The notes under the pieces: generated by a model
What the model was told of the DNA's origin: nothing
Database searches by the model: none
Seen by the model: the letters and a program-made list of their open reading frames with translations, nothing else
Part shown: positions 8,500 through 57,464 of the stretch, piece after piece
How the letters are laid out: the number at the start of each line of letters is the position of its first letter
Position numbering within the stretch: the stretch's first letter is position 1
Program-made: the position numbers and the translations under genes
DNA from: Eledone cirrhosa
Lineage: Eukaryota
DNA: 64,000 bases
Direction of reading: 5' to 3'
Assembly: GCA_964016885.1 (NCBI GenBank)
Contig: OZ024745.1
Location: 86,428,001-86,492,000 of the forward strand

Positions 8500-9782
8500 T
8501 CCTTTAGCATTTAACCCTTTAGTGTTCAAATCAGCCGCAATTATTTCTCCTTCATTTGTTCAATCCGCCAGAAACTGGTCGATAACACCCACACTAAAAT
8601 ATTGTTCTAAAAATAAACAATACCGTCATCAAAAATCTCGCCAATTCGAGATTACTGCGAGATTAGGCCCTTACCGCGAAAATTAACACTTAATATAGTG
8701 AAACAACTTAAAACAACACGTTTTTTTAACGTTAAAAGTAGAACAGATTTTTTCTGTATCAACATAGCTTGTGAAAGTAGTGGTACCTACTTTGAAGGTT
8801 TTACACACGACGACATTCACAATGAACAAGAAACAAAAGATAATATTAGTGATCTATCTTCAAATGAATCAGATGTTTACATTTCTAAAATTTCATCTGA
8901 CGATGATTGTTTTGAAAGTGAAAACGAAGGAGATCTCCAGGACACCATTGAAAATATTACAGCAACGTGGTTGAAAAATACCACATCAATATATGTTCCC
9001 GATTTTATTCAAAATACTGGTCCACAACACACATTAGCTCCCGATGCTAAAGCACTGGATTATTTCTTTTTGTTTTTACCACAAACTTTCTTTGAAGTTG
9101 TGGCAGAAGAGACTAATCGATATGCCCAACAACAAATTTCAAATCGAGGAAAACCCGATCTGTTTGGTGCCCGACAGATGCTGCAGAAATGCAAGCATTT
9201 TTTACCGTAAATATTATGTTCGGTATGAAACAATTTCCAAGACTCTGGAATTACTGGACCACTGATATAAGGTTTCGTGATCCTTATATATCAAATATTA
9301 TGCCAAAAACAACATATTTAAAATTAAACCAGTATTTGCACCTGGTTGATACTTCAAATGCCCCTTATTAAATTAATTTCACCTGCCCATAAAAGTCAAA
9401 TTTAACCAAAAAAATCAAGTAAAATTATATAATTGTAAATTATTGATATTTAAACATCTACTGACAAAATTTCAAGCCTGCACATAGAAAATTAAGAAAG
9501 TTAGAAACAAATAAAATTGATAACCCTCTTGAGTACGATTAACTGAAAATAATGTGAATAGATAAACATGACATTTGACAAGAAACAATTAATGTGAATA
9601 CTAAAGGGTTAAACCGGCCAAATTTGGCCCGAATTCTCTTACATCTTTCTGTTCAAACTGGCTGTAACCAGCCACTCATACTGATATTAAGGTATTGTTC
9701 TCAAAATAAATATTATCAAAATCTCATAGATTCGATATTAGCCTTTACCATGTAAATATAGAATAATGCAAATGCTAAAGGG
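8500..9782. mobile_element. TTAA MITE (same family as 6231-6428) interrupted by a piggyBac derivative
   Basis: TTAA|TCCTTTAGCAT...AATGCTAAAGGG|TTAA; insertion sits at the internal TTAA at 8511-8514. Confidence 0.7.
8515..9608 (+). mobile_element. Internally deleted piggyBac element (N-terminal transposase remnant)
   Basis: TTAA TSDs; TIRs CCCTTTAG/CTAAAGGG; peptides ALDYFFLFLPQTFFEVVAEETNRYAQQ and RLWNYWTTD...ISNIMPKTTYLKLNQYLH are typical of PGBD-like transposases; frameshifted and truncated. Confidence 0.88.
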
Positions 9783-28494: not shown

Positions 28495-29161
28495 TATAAC
28501 GGCGGCGAAGATTCGAAACCGAATCTGAGCTTTCCCGCCTCTGGGACAAGCCGTGGTAACTTGTTTACGCTCAAGAGACTAACCCCTTGGGAGAGGCTAA
28601 ACACAGATCAGAGGTGTTTACGCCTGACAGAAAATAGGTCAGAGGATATATCCATCTTTCTGACTTGTTTACGCTTGGCAAACTAATCCCTTGGGAGACT
28701 CTAACCAAAATTCAGAGGATATATCTATCCTTCTAACTTCAACTCTTATAAATACAGGGGTTGTTTACGCCCCGACAGAAAAGAAGTGATATACAGACAA
28801 GACAAGTCGCATTTACAAGCTCTCGTCACGAAAAACGAGTCTGCCACTTATTTTCACCTTCATGGCTGATCGCTGACTCCTGCAATACAAATAAGTAAAT
28901 ATACTGATACGCACACGCGCATTCATAGTGAGTTCAGTATTTTTACACGCACCATTTCTGTTTACACATATTGTACCTTTCTGGTACAGTATAAATTATA
29001 TTATAATCGTATTCTGTGATACTTGAATTTACGTGGCTCGAAGAGTCACCAAATTATTGTATGAATATTTTGTGTTATTGATTTTATCATTCAATATTCA
29101 AATTGAATATTGTTATAATAAAATAAACTTTGTAACAACACAATCCTGGTATTTTTCTTTA
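28495..29161 (+). mobile_element. Gypsy family B LTR (U3-R part) preceded by a PPT
   Basis: PPT ggaaggggg at 28483-28491; starts TATAACGG; internal repeats, TATA-like tataaa and AATAAA; its U5 end (CCGTTACA) is on the minus strand at 30112-30201. Confidence 0.75.
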
Positions 29162-29185
29162 TTCGGGGTCACCACTTATAACAAA

Positions 29186-30201
29186 GATGCTCGGTTGTGG
29201 AAAATCAATGATGGATTTGACTTTCTTCTTAAGTGGGCGAATACCATCTTTGTTAATGATGTGTCCCAGAAAATGAAGGGACGCAACTCCGAACTCACAT
29301 TTGCTAGGGTTGATAACAATTCCGTATTCACGCAAACGTGTGAATAGGAGATCCATGTGTTTCTCATGTTCTTCATCGGAGCTGCTGGCCACCAGTACGT
29401 CGTCAATGTATGCGTATACAAAAGGTAGACCTCTGGTGACTGTATCGATGAATCGCTGGAATGTCTGCGCTGCATTTCGCAAACCGAAAGGCATACGCAG
29501 AAATTCGAACATTCCAAAGGGTGTTGTGACGGCGGTCTTTGGAATATCTGCGGGCTCAACGGGTATCTGATTGTAATCTCGCACAAGACCGATCTTCGAA
29601 AATATGCGAGCCCCGTGCAGCGAGCTAGAGAAGTCCTGTAGATGAGGCACTGGATAAGAGTCAAGAACGGTGCAGTTGTTCAGTGCACGGTAGTCGCCAC
29701 AGATTCGCCAGTCGTTCGACGACTTCTTGGGTACACAGTGTATGGGTGAGGACCAGTTGCTGCTGGACGGACGTATGATGCCGAGATCCAGCATGTGCTG
29801 AAATTCTTGTTTGACGGACTTCAGCCGGTCTGGTGGTAAAATGAGGTCTCGAACCTCATTCATAATCTCCGGAGACATCGAACCGATGACATGTGTGAGA
29901 CGGGATGCCTCGCTAACGATCCGGTTCGATGCGAACTGCGCTTCGATGTGCGCGAACCACAGTGTTGGATCGTGCACCCAGAATGGTGGAATCCTTGATG
30001 TAAATGCCGCCCTGACTGCCATTTCTGCCGTAGATGAATCGTCGTGTGCTAGAGACATCGTTTGTAGTGGATGATCAGAAGCTTGTGTGTCTGTTTTACG
30101 GGGTCACCAGTTGTAACGGAATATTATGTGTGGTTGTAACGATAAGTGGATGGATGGATGTAACTGTTAGTATGGTGGTTTCGATGTAAAGAAAAATACC
30201 A
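29186..30201 (-). mobile_element. Inverted Gypsy segment: U5 end, PBS and in-frame gag-RT deletion fusion (ORF 29159-30058)
   Basis: Minus strand CCGTTACA-ac-TGGTGACCCCG; gag [20 protein letters not shown] joined directly to [23 protein letters not shown]...[14 protein letters not shown]...YIDDVLV. Confidence 0.9.
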
Positions 30202-39821: not shown

Positions 39822-42800
39822 TTAGCAGTAAAGACCGGCGTTGCTCAGGGCCACTCAGTAGCTGTGTTAAAGTTACAATTTTAAGTTCCTTTCTTGGTTT
39901 AAAAACTGTAGAGTCTACAGTGTAGACTTTCATGTGGTACTTTTGATTAATATTCCTTCAACCAACAGTATGCTTTATGAAGTTAAGAAAACATAACCAT
40001 AACCCGAATGTTAAAACAAAAGAGGATGCTGGGGATAAAAACTGCACTGGTAATCTATTAACAAAAATCGAAAGTGTAAACACTGCAACACTTGTGTCAG
40101 AGAAAAACATCAGCGTAACCAAACTATCAGTTATTTTGAAACAAAGAAATTGGATGGACATGAAAAACAAAAGAAAAATGCGTTATCCGAAGTCGAGGGG
40201 GCAGGCAGCATCAAAGAGGTTTCGCACCCTGTGATAAAAAATATTGACAATGTAATAGCGTAGATGTTTAAGTATAAACTATGAAGAGCTCATAATATAT
40301 GGTGAGTTTGATGGGCAGATTATAGACAGCCACAGCATGCGAAATGGACAGCTGCAGCAAAAGCCATATTCACCAAAAGAAATCGCTGAAATCAACAAAA
40401 CAGAAATGCTGCTTCCATTGCATCTTCACATGCAATTGAGAATGATGACGAAAGTTTACTTCGACGCACCAGAAATGCTGTTGCGTGTTGTCTAGGTCGG
40501 AATGCCTATTGAAACAATGAAAGAAATGACGGGAACAATCTTTGTATGTATGCGCCAAGTTGTGTGTGTCTATGTACTAAACGCCGGACTTGTCAGCGAC
40601 TGGAGGGGAGGGCGTCCTTAACAATCGAAAGCATCGATTTCAGAGTCCGCTTTGATTTGCGAGCAATGCTGGTCCTTAGAGGCCTAGGTGTCAATAGAAT
40701 GCACTGCATCGATGTTGAATACAGGTTTCGTAGACGCTATATATTTAAGGCAGTCGGTGTAACATTGCCGTTTTGAACCAAAAAAGACCTATAAAACCTC
40801 ACGGTAAACAATATTCTTTGTTTTCCGTTTGGAGCAAAAGCAAAGTGGTTGTTCCGGCTGCCAACTCGAGAACATCCAACGTAGAATTGTCCATGTGAAA
40901 AACATGGCTCCTTCAGGTGAAGTCCTGCCACAAATAAAATCTGACCCTGGGACTTGTTGGTGGACATAGCAAAGGCAGTACGAAGGGGAAATTGGGTTCT
41001 TTTAAAAGAATAGGGTGCATCCACCCCTGATGTAGTAAGAGTTACCGTAGGTATTAAAACATCTCCTTTTCCACACCCCGACATAATCGTAGCATAAATA
41101 ATGTGCTGTAACATCCTATTGACAACAAGGCGTGTACCATTGCAAAGCTTGGGAGGGGTTATATTTCTGAGAAGTATAACTGGACATCCTTCCTTGAGAG
41201 ACAAAATATGTTGAGGCAGACCGGGAATATCAAATGAATAGAGGAATTCAATGGGATAATTGACTGCATCATGTGCATCAATATTGGTATCAATAGACTT
41301 AAAAGTCTTATCATTTCCAGGAAGACTTTCAAGCATTTGGCGATTAATGGCGGAGACAGTGACATTTGTAGGAGCTAATATAGCCATCTCACACAGCCAT
41401 GTATGATTGCGGTAATTATCTGCCAAGTTGGGAAAAACGGTTGCCTTGAGATATTCGACAGTATTAACCAGACAGCATATATTGTCGAGTGCAATGTCTC
41501 GATGCACACCTGAAGGTACTTTGCCGTCGCCAAGAATGAGAAGGTCTTCAGCAAATTTTTCAGACACAGTATCGCCAAGCAGTTGAACACGCATATTAGT
41601 GGTCAGACGAAGTGTTGTTACCTGTTGCCACAATGGAGAAGACTTCAGGCAGGCCCGAACTTGACCCGCTCTGGTGCCCTTTGGAATAACCGGCAAAGGT
41701 TGTCGAAAGTTCCCTGAAAGCAAAAGAGTTACACCCCCATGGTCTCCTGACGGTCTCTAATGTCTTTCAGTGTTCTATCTAATGCCTCAATAGATCCTTT
41801 GTGAGCCATGGTGCATTCATCCCACACAATCAGTTGGCACCGTCGTAGCAGTTCTGCTCTCGGACTATCCATGGTGATGTCACAGAGCGGTGTTTCAGCT
41901 GATACCAAGTTAAGCGGAAGCTTAAAGGTAGAGTGTGCTGTCCTGCCGCCAGGAAGTAGTGTTGCTGCAATACCGGATGATGCAACGGCTATTGCAATAA
42001 CTTCATTCTGTCTAACTTTGGCAAGAAGAAGTTTAGTAACAAAGGTTTTTCCAGTGCCTCAAGAAAGAAGGTACCACCCCATCGATGAAATACATAGTCG
42101 TGATAGTGTTGTATGCAAATTGCTGATCGGGAAGTAGTTTTGGTTCCATTTCAAACACATAGCTAGCTAGAGTGTCGATATCATAAGATGTTTCTTGGAT
42201 GATGAGAGTTGGAATTTTATTAGAATCAGTGTGGTGGGTTTGTGGCAGACCGTATGCTGGCAAGGCATTCCCACCCATAAGGAAAATTCTGTCCTCTATG
42301 TTTATAAGCCCTTTATTGTATAAATCATCACTGAAATCTACTTCTATGTCAGGAAGTAGTAGTTGAGCCTGGTGCAGGAAGTCCTCAGACAGTTGGTTCC
42401 GAAACTTCAACCATAATGTGTAGGGATCACAAATGTTACATAAGTGAAGAAGCTTTGCAAAGAGCTCTCGTAGGCTTCCAGCTGAGTGTGATGAAGCGAT
42501 CTCCGCCAAGGTTGCATCCCATCGTGAGTCATCTTCAAGCATTCCACGAGCCAAACAGGTATCTCTGTATGTAGACCAAACACGTAAGTCCTGAGGTCCT
42601 GAAAACTGGTCGGTCCTTTGACCTCATGCAGTAGCATTCGAAGATAGAAGCTCTCGTGTTGATTTGGAGGAATCGTATACACTCGCCCCAAGCAATTAGT
42701 GAATTTGATTCCGGGAACTCCAATAACTGGTTGGCCAGTCTTTCTGCGACTCCATGTTTTTTTTTATTCCATGTGTAGTATGATGGCACCTGAGGATACA

Positions 42801-45800
42801 GCAATGATTTTGCGAAGTCATCGTATTCGCACAGTTTGAAAAATCCAGTTAAAGTTGTTTCCCTTGGGGTCTGTGCCAATTCAGAGGCATTTTTGTTGGT
42901 ATAGTACATCCGTTACAATTGAAGGGTGCCTATCATGTATTGGAAAACCGAAGATTCGCCAAAAGGCCTCGCTACTACTTATGTAGCGCCCTACTTGGAA
43001 TTGCGTTACTTCGTCTCTATTGTTTTCGTTGAGTATACCGAACGAAGCAGCGTCAGAACCATTATTAACATACTTACATATGTATTTGATGCACTTGACG
43101 GAGCTGCAGAATTCAACATTAATGTGTGCGTTGAAAGTACTGAGCAGGAGTAAGCAATAGGGAATGATCCATCGTTTGTCAATCTCGCCATTCTTAACCC
43201 TTGCCGTAAAACCTCCCTCTTCACGTCTCCTACGTCTATATAATGGGTAGCCATCATTGCCAGTCTGAGTATCGCGAATAAATTGACGGGGAAATTTTTA
43301 GTGCATCTTTTATTGCCTGTAACGCAATTCTAAAGCCAGACCCACATGGACCATGCACCATATGTGCCCTAACTTTCATGTACAGGTCCTTGTCAGTGGA
43401 AGGATCGGGTAATTCTGCAGAGATGATCCTGTCAATGTCGTTAGGACTAAAGTTTTTTGTCAGCCAAATAAGAATATGAGCATGAGAGAGGCCCCTTTTT
43501 TGTCATTCGATTGTGTACATGTCACATTGAACTGGTCCGAAAACCTCATTTAATTTGATAAGATCCATAAGCTTAAGTAACTTAAGACGGAATACTCTAG
43601 CCGCGAGATTATGTCGGCGTGTGGCGTTCTGACCAGGAAGGAGTTCGCCCTCAATCTCCTTCCAATTGGGGTTACAAGTAAAAGTTATAAATAAGTCTGG
43701 CCTGCCGTAATGTCGTACAATGGTCATGGCGTCCTGAGTCCTTTCATGCATATATCGAGGGCTTCCCGTGAAGGTAGATGGCAGAATGCATACTTTTCCA
43801 AGACTCTCAGGATCCGCATCATTGTTCATTCCACCACGAAGGTGTATGTAACTGTCACAACGCAACTTTTGTTGATTGAGTTTGATAAAACACAATCTCT
43901 CAGATTCCATTTTTGCACACATGTCAGTTGCATACTGGTTGAAAAGGTCTTTAGAGCGATGGAGGTGAAACTGTTTTGGTAGAATGAACCTCTGAATTGG
44001 TAGATTTACATTGTGGAATGCCAAAATGGTATCCGTCCTCTCCATATACAAAAAGCAGCGGGTATTGGAGTGCGTCGTATGATCTGTGTGTTTCACTGAT
44101 CCGTTGAAGTCCATGGTCGAGATGCTTGATAACAATGTCACGTTTGTTGTGCTGATCACCAGCGAGAAGTATTGCAACCTCATTGAAAGAAAGTGAATTA
44201 TAGCGGCCTGCATGTTCTCCAGATGACCGCTTGTCAGCATCAATGACGACATAGTAATTGTCCACAGGAGCTGCTTCTAACGCGTATTTGAAGCTCTGAA
44301 CGTAGCTGTTATGACTATGAAGCATGTCCCGAGGTTCAAAAAGGAGCTCCAGTCTAGTGTTAGAAGCAATTGAGTATTTCCTTGTTGCTTGTGGACAGTC
44401 AATTGAGTTTTGAGTTTTTTCTTTTGGGAAGGCAAATGTATTTCGCCTTGTAGCTTGTTCAAGACAGTTGGGCATGAAGTAGGTCTGAAGAAATTGGGGC
44501 TCTTTATTATCTACAGGCTCCAGCGATGCGATAAGATGATAAACCTGACCTTGGACTTTGAAAGTGGGCATAAATCCACCTTCATACTCATAACTCGATC
44601 TAAAAGATGTCATTTGGAAGGAACAATTGTAATGTCGAATATCTTGAAGGAAATCTCTTGAGAGTGAATGGGTGCCTGTAAGAAGAAGCCTCAATGGCTG
44701 TGGTGGATCCCTAGGAGGGAGCAAGTTGACCTTACCATTAGAGCAGCACATTCCGGCTGGTTCACTCGGCCACTTTTTGGCTTTGCAAAAGTGGCAAATT
44801 TCAAACAGGCCGCCGATTTGAATATGAGGGTGTGTAGCATAATTATTAGCGGGACATAATTGAAAGCCTTCAATGACCATTGTGATTTGGCAGCCCTCGA
44901 AATACCCCGCTTATTGGGTTATACTGCCCCCCCCCCCCCCCCCCGTCGAATAGTTCGGATAGCTGCTGTCTTCGATTCTTGCGCAGTTGCAGTAGCTGCC
45001 GCGTCTCTGCTCTGACGAAGATCACGTTCAACATCATTCTCTGCAGTTCGCGCAGCTGCCGTAGCAGCCGCGTCTCTGCTTTGACGAAGATCACGTTCAA
45101 CATCATTCTCTGCAGCTCGTGCCGCTGCCGTAGCAGCCGCTTCTCTGCTCTGACGAAGTTTACGTTGAACATCGTTCTCTGCAGTTCGCGCAATGCTTTT
45201 GCCTTTGCATTTCTTGCAAGCCGAGTTTGACGTTCCTGGTTATTCACTGCAGCATGTGAGGATGCAGTTGAAGAAGCATTTCTGGTGCGTCGAAGTAAAC
45301 ACTCGTCATCATTCTCAGTTGCATGTGAAGATACAAGCAATGCTCATCGATAGACAGAGCTGTCGCATTCACTGAACACCCCACAATTTGAGGTTGTCTA
45401 ATGCTCGACGACGCCTCAGTCAGTCTCCTTCTTTTCGTTATCTGAGACCGCGTCAGTCGTAATAAGGGCATCTTCTTTTTAGGCATCAAGGTGGCGAGCA
45501 CGATATGACAAAGGAATCTGACAAATGTATCTTAAATATAAAACAATGCGAAAAAATAAATTTTGCGAATCATTCAATTTTGCAAATCAATTAGTCTAAT
45601 GAGAAATGCACCCCAAATCCTAGAAAATGTCATAGTTGCATTATTTACAAAGTCATCTTTACATGAACATGCAGTGTAACCAATAATGTTGGCACTGCCG
45701 TTCTTTAACTTTGTTATAATTCAGTGATAACAGTGATTCAAAGGAAATTTAAACTTTTTAGAGAAATCAAAATTGCACATAAGGCATAACATCTATCACA

Positions 45801-50305: not shown

Positions 50306-50385
<80 letters not shown>

Positions 50386-51097
50386 TACATAAAAGTATGT
50401 ATACGTACATACATATATGTATACAGACGTACAGTAGTATGCATATATATATACATATATACATACATGCACACATATATATATATGTACGTATGGATTC
50501 ACCGAATATTTATTATAATGCTCTGTGTGTTTGTAAACAAACATCCCGAATTAAGCCGTACAGTGTCTAGCAACCATCGTTGCTCATTTGTTCAACACTG
50601 ACAAAGGAACGCTGTACTAGTTTCAAGCTTATTAGGTATCGTCAGCAACGTATACCTTCCTGCCAGATGGTTGAACGTCTGAAAGTATATATTTTCCTTG
50701 TGCATATTAACGGCTGAGCAGCCTAATTTGCATATCAAGTGAGTTAATCGGCCGGGTTACCGAAAACGATAAACGGAAAAAATGAAACGAAATTTCATTT
50801 CTCACTCTTAGTACGGCTGACAAAGGAACGCTGTACTAGTTTCAAGCTTATTAGCTATCATCAGCAACGTATACCTTCCTGCAAGTTGGTTGAACGTATG
50901 AAAGTATATACTTTCCTTATGCATATTAACGGCTAGGCAGCCTAATTTGCAAATCGAGTGAGTTAATCGACCTCAGTACCGAAAACGATAAACGGAAAAA
51001 ATGAAACGAAATTTCATTTCTCACTCTTAGTACGGCTGTTATTTAAATATAAGTATGTATACGTACATACATATATGTATAAAGACGTACAGTAGTA

Positions 51098-51253
<156 letters not shown>

Positions 51254-51676
51254 CATATATACATACATGCACACATATATATATGTACGTATGTATTCAC
51301 CGAACATTTATTATAATGCTCGGTGTGTTTGTAAATAAACATCCCGAAATAAGCCGTACAGTGTCTTGCAACCATCGTTGCTCATTTGTTCAACACTGAC
51401 AAAGGAACGCTGTAATAGTTTCAAGCTTATTAGCTATCGTCAGCAACGTATGCCTTCCTGCAAGTTGGTTGAACGTCTGAAAGTATATACTTTCCTTATG
51501 CATATTAACGGCTAAGCAGCCTAATTTGCAAATCGAGTGAGTTAATCGACCTCAGTACCGAAAACGATAAACGGAAAAAATGAAACGAAATTTCATTTCT
51601 CACTCTTAGTACGGCTGTTATTTAAATATAAGTATGTATACGTACATACATATATGTATAAAGACGTACAGTAGTA

Positions 51677-51712
<36 letters not shown>

Positions 51713-52123
51713 CATGCACACATATATATATGTACGTATGTATTCACCGAACATTAATTATAATACTCGGTGTGTTTGTAAATAAACATCCCGCATTAAG
51801 CCGTACAGTGTCTTGCAACCATCGTTGCTCATTTGTTCAACACTGACAAAGGAACGCTGTAATAGTTTCAAGCTTATTAGCTATCGTCAGCAACGTATAC
51901 CTTCCTGCCAGATGGTTGAACGTCTGAAAGTATATACTTTCCTTATGCATATTTACGGCTGAGCAGCCTAATTTGCATATCGAGTGACTTGATCGGCAGG
52001 GGTAGCGAAATCGATGAACGGAAAAAGTGAAACGAAATTACATTTCTCATTCTTAGTAATGCTGTTATTTAAATATAAGTATGTATACGTACTTACATAT
52101 TTGTATACAGACGTACAATCGTA

Positions 52124-52232
<109 letters not shown>

Positions 52233-54196
52233 TTATATATATACATATATACATACATGCACACATATATATCTCTACGTATGGATTCACCAAACATTTA
52301 TTATAATGCTCGATGTGTTTGTAAACAAACTTGCCAAATTAAGCCGTACAGAGTCTAGCAACCATCGTTGCTCATTTGTTCAACACTGACAAAGGAACGC
52401 TGTACTAGTTTCAAGCTATCGTCAGTAACGTATACCTTATTGCCAGATGGTTGAACGTCTGAAAGTATGTATTTTCTTTATGTATATTAAGGGCTGAGCA
52501 GCCTTATTGGGCATATCGAGTGAGTACATATATATATATGTACGTATGGATTCACCGAACATTTATTATAATGCTCGTTGTGTTTGTAAACAAACATGCC
52601 AAATTAAGCTGTACATTGTCTAGCAACCATCGTTGCTCATTTGTTCAACACTGACAAAGGAACGCTGTACTAGTTTCAAGCTTGTTAGCTATCGTCATCA
52701 ACGTATACCTTCCTGCCAGATAGTTAAACGTCTGAAAGTATGTACTTTCTTTATGCATATTAAGGGCTGAGCAGCCTTATTGGGTATATCGAGTGAGTTA
52801 ATCAGCCGGGGTACCGAAAACGATAAAAGGAAAAAGGAAATGAAATTTGATTTCTCACTCTTAGTACGGCTGTTACTTAAACATGTATACATACATAGAT
52901 ATATGTATACAGACGTACTGTAGTATGCATATATATATATATATATGCATATATATATGTTCCTGTGTCAGTGTTGAACAAAAAGGTGACGTGGTTGCCT
53001 TAACACCGTATGGCATAAATTCAGGCTGTTCAGTTTGTTTACAAACGAACAAAGCGACGTTATAATAAGCGCCGCTAAACTGATACGTGCATATATGTAT
53101 GTGTACCTGTATGCATATGTATGTATATATGTATATATATATATATATGTGCATGCTACTGTACGTCTGTATACATATATGTATGTACGTATACATGCAT
53201 ACTTACATTTAAGTAAGTGCCATACTAAGAGTGAGAAATGAAATTTCGTTTTCATTTTTTTCAATTTATCTTTTTCGGTATGCCTGACCGATTTAACTCA
53301 CTCAATATGCAAATTAGGCTGCTCAGCCGTTAATTTTCATAAGGAAAGTATATACTTTCGAACGTTCAACTATCTGGCAGATGGGTAAACGGTGCTGATG
53401 ATAGCTAACAAGCTTGAAACTAGTACATCGTTCCTGTGTCAGTGTTGAACAAAAAGGTGACGTGGTTGCCTTAACACCGTATGGCATAAATTCAGGCTGT
53501 TCAGTTTGTTTACAAACGAACAAAGCGACGTTATAATAAGCGCCGCTAAACTGATACGTGCATATATGTATGTGTACCTGTATGCATATGTATGTATGTA
53601 TGTATGTATGTATATATATATATATATATGTGCATGCTACTGTACGTCTGTATACATATATGTATGTACGTATACATGCATACTTACATTTAAGTAAGTG
53701 CCATACTAAGAGTGAGAAATGAAATTTCGTTTTCATTTTGTTTCAATTTATATATATATATATATATACATATATACATACATGCACACATATATATATA
53801 TGTACGTCTGGATTCACCGAACATTTATTATAATGCTCGTTGTGTTTGTCAACAAACATGCCAAATTAAGCCGTATTGTGTCTAGCAACCATCGTTGCTC
53901 ATTTGTTCAAAACTGACAAAGGAACTCTGTACTAGTTTCAAGCTTATTAGCTATCGTCAGCAACGTATACCTTCCTGCCAGATGGTTGAACGTATGAACG
54001 TATATACTTTCCTTACGCATATTAACGGCTGAGCAGCCTAATTTGCATATCGAGTGAGTTAATCGGCCGGGATACCGAAAACGATAAACGGTATAAATGA
54101 AACGAAATATCATTTCTCACCCTTAATACGGCTGTAACTTAAATATAAGTATTTATACGTACATACATATATGTATACGGACGTACAGTATTATGC

Positions 54197-54289
<93 letters not shown>

Positions 54290-54704
54290 TACATACATGC
54301 ACACATATATATATGTACGTATGGATTCACCGAACATTTATTATAATGGTCAGTGTGTTTGTAAACAAACATCCCGAATTAAGCCGTACAGTGTCTAGCA
54401 ACCATCGTTGCTCATTTGTTCAACACTGACAAAGGTACGCTGTACTAGTTTCAAGCTTGTTAGCCATCGTAAGCAACGTATACCTTCCTGCCAGATGGTT
54501 GAAAGTCTGAAAGTATATACTTTCCTTATGCATATTAAGGGCTGAGCAGCCTTATTGGGCATATCGAATGAGTTAATTGGCCGAGGTACCGAAAACGATA
54601 AAAGGAAGATGAATGAAATTTGATTTCTCACTCTTAGTACGGCTGTTACTTAAATATAAGTATGTATACATACATACATATATGTATACAGACGTACTGT
54701 AGTA

Positions 54705-54779
<75 letters not shown>

Positions 54780-55196
54780 TTATACATACATGCACACATA
54801 TATATGTACGTATGGATTCACCGAACATTTATTATAATGCTCGGTGTGTTTGTAAACAAACATCCCGAATTAAGCAGTACAGTGTCTAGCAACCATCGTT
54901 GTTCATTTGTACAACACTGACAAAGGAACGCTGTACTAGTTCAGGCTTAATAGCTATCGTCAGCAACGTATACCTTCCTGCCAGATGGTTGAACGTCTGA
55001 AAGTATATACTTTCCTTATGCATATTAACGGCTGAGCAGCCTAATTTGCATGTCGAGTGAGTTAATGGGCCGGGTTACCGAAAACGATAAACGGAGAAAA
55101 TGAAACGAGATTTCATTTCTCACTCTTAGTAAAGCGATTACTTAAATATAAGTATGTATACGTGAATACATATATGTATACAGACGTACTGTAGTA

Positions 55197-55310
<114 letters not shown>

Positions 55311-55673
55311 TACATATATGCACGCATATATATATATATGTACGTCTGGATTCACCGAACATTTATTATAATGCTCGGTGAATCCATACGTACATTTATA
55401 TATGTGTGCATATATCTATATAAGTATATATATATATATATATGCATACTATTGTAAGTCTGTATACATATATGTATGTACGTATACATACTTATATTTA
55501 AGTAACAGCCGTACTAAGAGTGAGAAATGAAATTTCGTTTGATTTTTTCCGTTTATCGTTTTCGGTACCCCGGCCGATTAACTCACTCGATATGCAAATT
55601 AGGCTGCTCAGCCGTTAATATGCATAAGGAAAGTATATACTTTCAGACGTTCAACCAGCTAGCAGTAATGTAT

Positions 55674-55716
55674 ACGTTGCTGACGATAGCTAATAAGCTT
55701 GAAACTAGTACAGCGT
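55674..55716 (+). ncRNA. Type I hammerhead ribozyme, family A (representative intact copy)
   Basis: acgttg-CTGACGA-tagct-aata-agctt-GAAA-cta-GTA-cagcgt: stem I acguug/cagcgu, stem II AGCU/AGCU, palindromic stem III ACUAGU, GUA cleavage triplet. Confidence 0.8.
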
Positions 55717-55872
55717 TCTTTGTCAGTGTTGAACAAATGAGCAACGATGGTTGCTAGACATTGTACGGCTTAATTCGGGATGTTTGTTTACAAACACACC
55801 GAGTATTATAATAAAATTTCGGTGAATCCATACGTATATATATATAAGTGTGCATGTATGTATATATATATG

Positions 55873-55954
<82 letters not shown>

Positions 55955-55964
55955 ATATATATAC

Positions 55965-57464
55965 ATTATGAAGAGAGAAGAAACATTTAGATATAATTAG
56001 TAATAAAATGTATCATACCTAAACTGTTCCTAAATTCCTCGACTACGTAGTTTCGTGGCATAAACAAAAACAATATATCAAAGATATAGAGTCCTTGCGA
56101 GGTCTGCCGACTTATCAAGAGGATACCTCATTTTACTAGTCTCAAGAACGCGTCTACACGACGTGAGAAAGAATCCCAAAAGGCGGAGGGGGAGATAGTC
56201 ACGCGATATAACGGTCGAGAAACAGAGCTAAGCCTCTTATAACCACGAAGAAAATACCACGGAGGCGGAGGGGGTATTCATATCGAGGCCGTAGAAGAGG
56301 TAGTGAAGAAGGCGAGAAGTATGAGTAATGGAAGCTTTCCAGTTGTCCCCACACTTCAAAGATTGCTCGACCAGAGGGAGTTATTAATATATTAAGAAAC
56401 ACACAGATACATGCGGACACACACATATATACATGAATGCATCCGCACCCAACTGTGAGTTAAGGGTGCCAACTTCACCGATGTTGCTCAATGAATGACT
56501 GGGATTCTTTCTCACGTCGTGTAGACGCGTTCTTGAGACTAGTAAAATGAGGTATCCTCTTGATAAGTCGGCAGACCTCGCAAGGACTCTATATCTTTGA
56601 TATATTGTTTTTGTTTATGCCACGAAACTACGTAGTCGAAGAATTTAGGAACAGTTTAGGTATGATACATTTTATTACTAATTATATCTAAATGTTTCTT
56701 CTCTCATCATAATGTATTTTTAACTCTGATACTGGTTCAGTCTGGTTCAAACTGAATTGGTCTGTCCCAGTCATTCAGTGAGCAACATCGGTGAAGTTGG
56801 CACCCTTAACTCACAGTTGGGTGCGGATGTATTCATGTATATATGTGTGTGTCCGCATGTATCTGTGTGTTTCTTAATATATTAATAACTCCCTCTGGTC
56901 GAGCAATCTTTGAAGTGTGGGGACAATTGGAAAGCTTCCATTACTCATACTTCTCGCCTTCTTCACTACCTCTTCTACGGCCTCGATATGAATACCCCTT
57001 CCGCCTCCGTGGTATTTTCTTCGTGGTTATAAGAGGCTTAGCTCTGTTTCTCGACCGTTATATCGCGTGACTATCTCCCCCTCCGCCTTTTGGGATTCTT
57101 TCTCACGTCGTGTAGACGCGTTCTTGAGACTAGTAAAATGAGGTATCCCCTTGATAAGTCGGCAGACCTCGCAAGGACTCTATATCTTTGATATATTGTT
57201 TTTGTTTATGCCACGAAACTACGTAGTCGAGGAATTTAGGAACAGTTTAGGTATGATACATTTTATTACTAATTATATCTAAATGTTTCTTCTCTCTTCA
57301 TAATGTATTTTTAACTCTGATACTGGTTCAGTCTGGTTCAAACTGAATTGGTCTGTCCCAGTTATTCATTGAGCAACATCGGTGAAGTTGGCACCCTTAA
57401 CTCACAGTTGGGTGCGGATGCATTCATGTATATATGTGTGTGTCCGCATGTATCTGGGTGTTTC

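Follow-up and report, generated by a model that had tools for sequence, protein, structure and literature searches.

The stretch at 52959..53751 is a young subfamily of a tandem repeat that carries a hammerhead, a non-LTR retrozyme, in the Eledone cirrhosa genome. The predicted multi-helix RNA fold of such units is conserved across subfamilies, and we consider it probable that this is so because only RNAs that fold well are reinserted at (TA)n sites, by a Penelope-type reverse transcriptase with two likely fixed internal start sites. In the literature, Penelope elements have been named as candidates for the copying of animal retrozymes because the two co-occur and resemble each other in terminal repeats. 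The retrozyme ends described here bear the Penelope two-start-site signature, with a covarying fold around both sites; covariation alone is an expected property of this known element class.

Retrozyme units and their genomic setting

The window (the whole stretch of 64,000 nucleotides that was analysed) holds at 50381-59378 an array of a 420-470 bp repeat, subfamily A, to which the inserted subfamily B is about 80% identical (Table 1). The B insertion begins 5 nt past the cleavage site and stops at a site that we call Y, and the host array runs on past the window, beyond a Penelope element. No open reading frame of at least 150 aa is found in 50381-59378, and the array repeats have a GC content of 0.29-0.38. 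All bases quoted in the preliminary description of this DNA were found where it had placed them. On the minus strand, an internal 219-bp duplication at window 50598-51038 has brought two hammerheads close to each other.

Table 1. Positions of the retrozyme units, their predicted structural parts and the neighbouring element in the window
Feature	Position	Strand	Basis or remark
Subfamily A units, minus arm of host array	50381..55380	-	interrupted by B; outer end at site X
Subfamily B retrozyme insertion, ~1.6 units	52959..53751	+	within (TA)n tract of minus-strand A unit
Small hairpin just before P1, with 3'-end site X	53200..53215; second copy 53681-53696	+	fold, end mapping
P1 5' arm, long-range helix	53218..53225	+	fold
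P2 domain, GAGTGAG/CTCACTC closing AU-rich hairpin	53229..53303	+	fold
U-rich linker with site Y in P2 domain	about 53262-53269	+	
Hairpin of P2 domain	53275-53291	+	
ATGCAAAT octamer within a stem	53307..53314	+	kept in A, B, C
Hairpin AAAGTATATACTTT	53345..53358	+	fold; partly deleted in sub-lineage A1
Extended stem I carrying hammerhead	53364..53450	+	fold
Type I hammerhead	53389..53431	+	motif against PMC4209133 definition
Hammerhead stem I	53389-94/53426-31	+	
Hammerhead core CUGAUGA	53395-401	+	
Hammerhead stem-loop II	53402-15	+	
Hammerhead GAAA	53416-19	+	
Palindromic stem III, then predicted cleavage	after 53425	+	
Hairpin after stem I	53456..53470	+	A-U to G-U to G-C path
P1 3' arm	53479..53486	+	
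Last hairpin, with UUAUAAUAA loop	53524..53547	+	one A-C mismatch in copy at 52959..53751
3' end of B insertion at site Y	53744..53751	+	joined to (TA)n
Subfamily A units, plus arm	55381..59378	+	interrupted by family E
5'-truncated Penelope-like reverse transcriptase and GIY-YIG open frame	59613..61607	+	Hydra-like motifs; inserted in array

Every A and B unit carries a type I hammerhead motif, with a 6-bp stem I, CUGAYGA, a 3-bp stem II on a U-U mismatch and GAAA, and with a palindromic stem III preceding GUA. Set beside the canonical definition (PMC4209133), it has the CUGANGA and GAAA core, a UH cleavage site, a helix I of about 6 bp and, as that definition asks, a short helix III with a palindromic loop. 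Helix II has 3 bp, stacked on a U-U mismatch, where about 4 bp are canonical, and is in this respect like that of axolotl Amex2. By its sequence the A/B hammerhead is a canonical type I motif, and self-cleavage is predicted. A search of the whole window with Rfam gave no match at the gathering threshold, and at E up to 5 no hammerhead was seen among the 150 of 177 matches listed, most of which belong to AT-repeat microRNA models.

Exact A/B ribozyme cores occur 24,746 times in the 3.0-Gb genome (reversed-pattern control, 0). Subfamily B is spread over the whole genome; the best 40 of 348 candidates for it, when scored, gave 41 matches at 95-100% identity. A pattern demanding other stems found family C (5,332 matches, 468-bp period), which is 68% identical to A and B, and family D has about 10,154 matches with a 310-bp period, nearly all of the 100 listed being D. 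Units are about 420-490 bp long, with periods of 422-487 in the measured monomers. The window and 148 loci yielded 156 distinct full units (57 A, 80 B, 12 C and 7 D); this sample is biased, since a locus was included either because it resembled B or because its core was intact. A/B variants also occur in four contig sets of unknown kind. Three other loci (L124, at G000:C1:30.83 Mb, L158 and L090) hold long head-to-head arrays of C (468 bp) and D (310 bp) that are near-perfect.

The units have no LTR, no protein-coding frame and a GC content under 50%, and their predicted circle is highly self-paired, with circular MFE z values of -7.8 (A1), -8.7 (B) and -9.0 (C) against 25 shuffles each, to which the (TA)n hairpin contributes. 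They are non-LTR retrozymes as defined in PMC7229834, with the RNA form predicted. The animal non-LTR retrozymes described there from coral, mussel and axolotl (Cervera and de la Pena 2020) share with them the tandem repeats, one type I hammerhead per unit, low GC, absence of LTR and open reading frame, a highly paired predicted circle, several families per genome and coexisting Penelope-like elements (PLEs). However, the unit here is 420-490 nt instead of 170-400 and has its own variable (TA)n tract; moreover, in the accessible text of PMC7229834 folds are derived from energy alone, with no test of covariation, and PLEs are put forward as candidates without support from insertion ends.

Other hammerhead repeats are also comparable in part. 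The Dolichopoda satellite pDo500 (PMC2837043) likewise shows compensatory mutations in a genomic hammerhead repeat, but as far as that account can be followed they lie in the ribozyme stems and the rest is less conserved, whereas here they extend to the non-ribozyme part. Newt satellite 2, which is cited in PMC2220036 as having an snRNA-type promoter, is also a hammerhead tandem repeat with a weak palindromic stem III, and is presumably unrelated to the present units in sequence. In the literature that we searched, thin on subscription papers, neither whole-unit covariation nor a tail signature was found for retrozymes; the supplements of PMC7229834 and of the preprint 10.64898/2026.07.22.740005 lay outside this search and could list the A/B family.

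Predicted fold and compensatory changes

Independent folds of A, B and C give one common multibranch layout, in which the arms of the long-range helix P1 lie 260 nt apart. In all six representatives taken from A, B and C, the ribozyme strand folds better than its antisense by 9-24 kcal/mol; the antisense, too, has a fold (z -3.8), and family D folds better in antisense. In its shorter unit, D appears by eye to retain a P1-like helix and the same loop layout. The octamer ATGCAAAT, which we take to be the snRNA-promoter octamer, is present in 39 of 57 A, 80 of 80 B, 11 of 12 C and none of the 7 D units. It is kept even where its partner strand mismatches, and is absent from one long C array; that it might be a promoter element is a speculative suggestion from its sequence.

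The preliminary description had proposed that B keeps the pairings of A while changing their sequence. For P1, the step from AGCCGTAC/GTACGGCT (57566-73/57824-31) to TGCCATAC/GTATGGCA indeed alters both partners of two pairs, as 58 B copies at 28 loci show, and the U-G to G-U exchange in hammerhead stem I is fixed in 72 B copies from 37 loci. The form acgcug/cagcgu at 58704, listed with it, is a private change of a single copy that does not recur in at least two loci and is therefore no evidence. The hairpin said to pass from caccgagca to agcgacg/gcgccgcu is present, but in the sub-lineage found here (9 loci) it holds an A-C mismatch; other B sub-lineages pair at that position and carry a bulged C. 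In the change from gcaac/guugc to ggugac/guugcc one pair is compensated, while the other two only went from Watson-Crick to wobble.

Some changes can be followed through intermediates. The first pair of P1 went from A-U through U-G (3 loci) to U-A, and in the hairpin after stem I there are genome-wide 1,583 G-U copies against 244 A-C copies (one site, one event); these counts support the passage of one change through an amplified G-U intermediate on the ribozyme strand. The P2 domain shows an A-U to G-C change in sub-lineage A1 (14 loci). Independent compensatory events are few, about ten in three or four lineages.

For a quantitative comparison, the structure was taken from one natural copy and scored on the other lineage through a structure-blind alignment, with the expectation given by the same substitutions shuffled among paired sites. 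Six A-B comparisons gave 5 compensated pairs where about 1.2 were expected (p 0.001-0.005) and 12-16 broken pairs where 19-24 were expected (p 0.0002-0.002). For instance, from A0 to B8 the 103 pairs comprise 78 unchanged, 5 compensated (1.2 expected; p 0.004), 6 wobble-kept and 14 broken (21.8 expected; p 0.0003). With the hammerhead left out, four comparisons still gave p 0.0009-0.025 for compensated and 0.0003-0.003 for broken pairs. The antisense control was weaker, yet partly significant (p 0.008-0.09), because Watson-Crick swaps are strand-symmetric.

Refolding points in the same direction. B retains 83% of the pairs of A, and A 91% of those of B, against 19-21% in neutral mutants (0/200 reach these values), while C retains 60% and 87% against 7-8% (0/200 and 0/150). 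With the hammerhead held as in the real sequences, retention was 80%, 89% and, for C, 85%, against neutral values of 19%, 21% and 10% (0/150 each). A sequence-only alignment misplaces C at P1 and two hairpins and was left out of the pair counts. An RNAalifold consensus from 53 A copies was weak, because of decayed copies, and partly wrong, and was set aside. These comparisons of sequences and modelled folds support conservation of the fold outside the ribozyme across subfamilies, beyond what neutral change would leave.

The preliminary description is thus borne out in part, the fold beyond the ribozyme being conserved far past neutral in B and, out of sample, in family C. Its extension to the entire unit is slightly too strong, since amplified sub-lineages have lost a hairpin or the inner P1 pair, or carry mismatches. 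U-U, G-G and A-C mismatches are found in amplified lineages, A1 is without one hairpin and the inner P1 pair, and the UUAUAAUAA loop is mostly missing from some B copies. The same description, which did not name a retrozyme and missed the insertion-end signature, spoke of a structured functional RNA; the predicted structure holds, but near-neutral private mutations point to a retrotransposition intermediate instead of function in the host copies.

Private changes, defined as those seen in one unit only, were counted in 115 copies and fall on 81 of 22,496 paired, 67 of 14,899 unpaired and 5 of 1,494 core positions. Stems thus hold 81 against 97 expected (p 0.055), a rate of 0.36% against 0.45% that is significant for A/T sites only (p 0.024), and the core holds 5 against 6.7. 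In stems, 64 of the 81 break a pair, and the 17 that keep pairing compare with an expected fraction of about 0.18 (p 0.47). Among variants common to at least three loci, pairing is kept in 13 of 28, against 52 of 173 single-locus variants (p 0.13; the alignment is noisy). Because private mutations are near neutral, inserted copies seem to decay almost neutrally, with the constraint on the lineage that is being copied. What is constrained is most likely the RNA in its role as retrotransposition intermediate, not the host copies.

Insertion ends

Of 120 array 3' ends, 99 map to one of two homologous positions: X, within the hairpin that directly precedes P1, and Y, within the U-rich linker of P2. 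The windows around X and Y were defined once the data were known and together span about 5-7% of a unit. In 87 of these 99 cases the end is followed by (TA)n. The positions of X and Y relative to P1 and P2 hold in A, B, C and, by eye, D, where X falls in a short TA run and is less certain. X and Y are separated by about 58 nt in A and B, by 70 in C and by 28 in D. Eleven apparent array ends at the cleavage site turned out to be query-end artefacts and were dropped before this count.

The 5' ends are scattered: of the 90 at junctions, 2 come as close as 10 nt to the cleavage site. All 45 inverted junctions are head-to-head. Both outer ends are at X or Y in 24 of these, and all 24 have one of each; the other 21 could not be scored as an X/Y pair, 11 being cut by the locus edge and 10 having another end. 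Two fixed 3' ends, scattered 5' ends and a head-to-head inverted copy are the marks of mobilisation by PLEs, in which an inverted truncated copy and a tail on one insertion end are described (bioRxiv 10.1101/2021.04.23.441226), and in vitro the tail corresponds to the segment that separates two internal reverse transcriptase start sites, with uncut RNA as the main template (PMC11167929). The insertion ends here carry this Penelope 'tail' signature, which likely comes from a Penelope-type reverse transcriptase.

As described in these two sources, PLEs share with the present units the two internal 3' ends, the one-arm tail, the head-to-head inverted truncated copies and the microsatellite targets. 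In contrast to PLEs, the units have no open reading frame, and X and Y are 28-70 nt apart, against 30-40 quoted for PLEs and 137 in the neighbouring element. A PLE origin of retrozymes has been argued from co-occurrence and pLTR trees in 10.64898/2026.07.22.740005, where PLE machinery is likewise proposed to mobilise them; the word 'tail' is absent from the accessible part of that preprint, whereas we find an insertion-end signature but no pLTR likeness to the seven PLE flanks compared.

A Penelope-like element beside the array

Open frames of about 830 aa, of the same family as the one at 59613-61607, are present at many loci (98-100% identical among the best 150 of 38,194 candidates). A natural 813-aa frame has DKT at 115, CNCRNKANC at 673 and YIG at 707. 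The Hydra clade is characterised by DKT, CxCx5C and (TA)n targets (bioRxiv 10.1101/2021.04.23.441226), and the neighbouring family shows a C-terminal GIY-YIG, DKT, the CxCx5C linker, a hammerhead and (TA)n insertion. A Pfam scan of the frame gave no match; the protein clusters closest to it have RVT_1, GIY-YIG and HTH_animal on 20-100% of their members. For the hammerhead that belongs to the Penelope-like element, 4,850 occurrences were counted. Measured from this hammerhead, the end lies at +72/75 or +209/210 in 29 of 32 arms, and the two ends are found one per arm in six of seven two-armed loci. No obvious fold like that around X and Y is seen at these two end sites. The 6.67-kb unit of this Penelope element contains about 2.5 kb of TA/TG microsatellite-like sequence as a part of its own (L179 4000-6740; window 62069-64000).

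Families A-D show no sequence likeness to seven Penelope flanks at E 1e-3 and no match to full units of the neighbouring Penelope family, and other PLE families in the genome have 29-65% protein identity. Together, this indicates the class of the helper but not the exact partner. Judged from its sequence, the frame at 59613..61607 is a candidate for the helper class and not a part of the retrozyme unit. The same genome holds near-identical intact copies of the Penelope enzyme, so that the published in vitro Penelope assay could test the link directly.

How the units may be copied

From these observations we infer a cycle of the following kind. The array would be transcribed, and the hammerhead would cut multimers to monomers, perhaps as a dimer because stem III is palindromic, after which monomers would be ligated into circles. 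A Penelope reverse transcriptase-endonuclease may then nick both strands of a (TA)n tract, one strand being primed at X and the other at Y, with copying round the circle or along the uncut multimer. That P1 and P2, which flank X and Y, form a docking scaffold for the enzyme in this process seems to us about evenly balanced. The (TA)n tract that every unit brings with it would account for the nesting of A, B, E and the Penelope element in this array. The fuller proposal, that P1 and P2 act as a transferable, sequence-unrelated docking scaffold on which a Penelope reverse transcriptase dimer primes both nicked (TA)n strands from two set points of a ribozyme-made circle, is tentative and leans towards doubt. 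If true, the module would be a structure-encoded signal by which a parasite addresses Penelope enzymes, and the genome would bear direct evidence of the way in which animal retrozymes move.

The main rival to docking, which we hold with the same reserve as that proposal, assumes the same retrozyme and Penelope mobilisation but lets the outer fold serve circle stability, ligation or the foldability of the hammerhead. All retrozyme circles are described as highly self-paired (PMC7229834), helices distant from X and Y are conserved too, and the neighbouring Penelope element lacks a matching fold at its ends. Against such a role stand the recurrent placement of X before the P1 arm and of Y in the P2 linker throughout A, B, C and, by eye, D, and also the in vitro finding that a Penelope protein attaches to a particular region of the RNA and initiates within a stem-loop (PMC11167929). 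Stability and docking are compatible with each other. It is unlikely that the units are instead solo or amplified pLTRs of an autonomous Penelope family not yet found, in which the fold would have been selected. Xenopus retrozymes do resemble PLE pLTRs, with a Repbase match in 24 of 57 families (10.64898/2026.07.22.740005), and the several PLE families in the genome would leave room for such a source; but the arrays are long, homogeneous and without open reading frame, the turnover from A to B took place among such copies, hammerheads near PLE frames have a long stem II unlike those of A-D, and none of the seven PLE flanks, all from fetched loci, is similar.

Two further accounts have a low probability. 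Selection on the genomic copies for a non-coding RNA that serves the host would agree with the slight deficit of private changes in stems and with the abundance of retrozyme RNAs in other animals, where they are expressed as circles (PMC7229834), yet private changes mostly break pairs at a random rate and also strike the catalytic core, and the insertions are truncated, inverted and nested like mobile DNA. We regard this as very improbable; for the copies in bulk a host role is already unlikely, while a few loci may have been co-opted. Least probable of all, and hardly to be expected, is a mutational artefact of DNA or cDNA hairpins, in which template switching corrected imperfect palindromes. 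The many short inverted repeats, the folding of the antisense strand and its partial significance could be so read, but the changes went in two steps through amplified wobble intermediates, the P1 arms are far apart, G-U pairs were retained and not perfected, and the ribozyme strand is the better folded in each representative.

Other repeats and genes in the window

Family E (window 55964-57467 and 59392-59686) is a 591-bp tandem repeat whose hammerhead has a long stem II and the core UUGAUAA, the U3-A8 covariant noted in PMC4209133. Its 3' ends lie at +80 or +245-247 in 20 of 21 cases, joined to (TA)n. At least six further hammerhead families with a long stem II and a palindromic stem III are present in the fetched loci (L179 7340-7490; L107 2060-2400; L080, L094, L041, L020; window 50101), two of them upstream of PLE frames. 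Elsewhere in the window, broken frames at 40737-44910 are presumably of a Helitron Rep/PIF1 helicase, a fragment at 29159-30103 looks to us like a Gypsy-type reverse transcriptase, and 2197-2691 and 8617-9210 we take to be a DEAH-box helicase-like exon and a piggyBac-like fragment.
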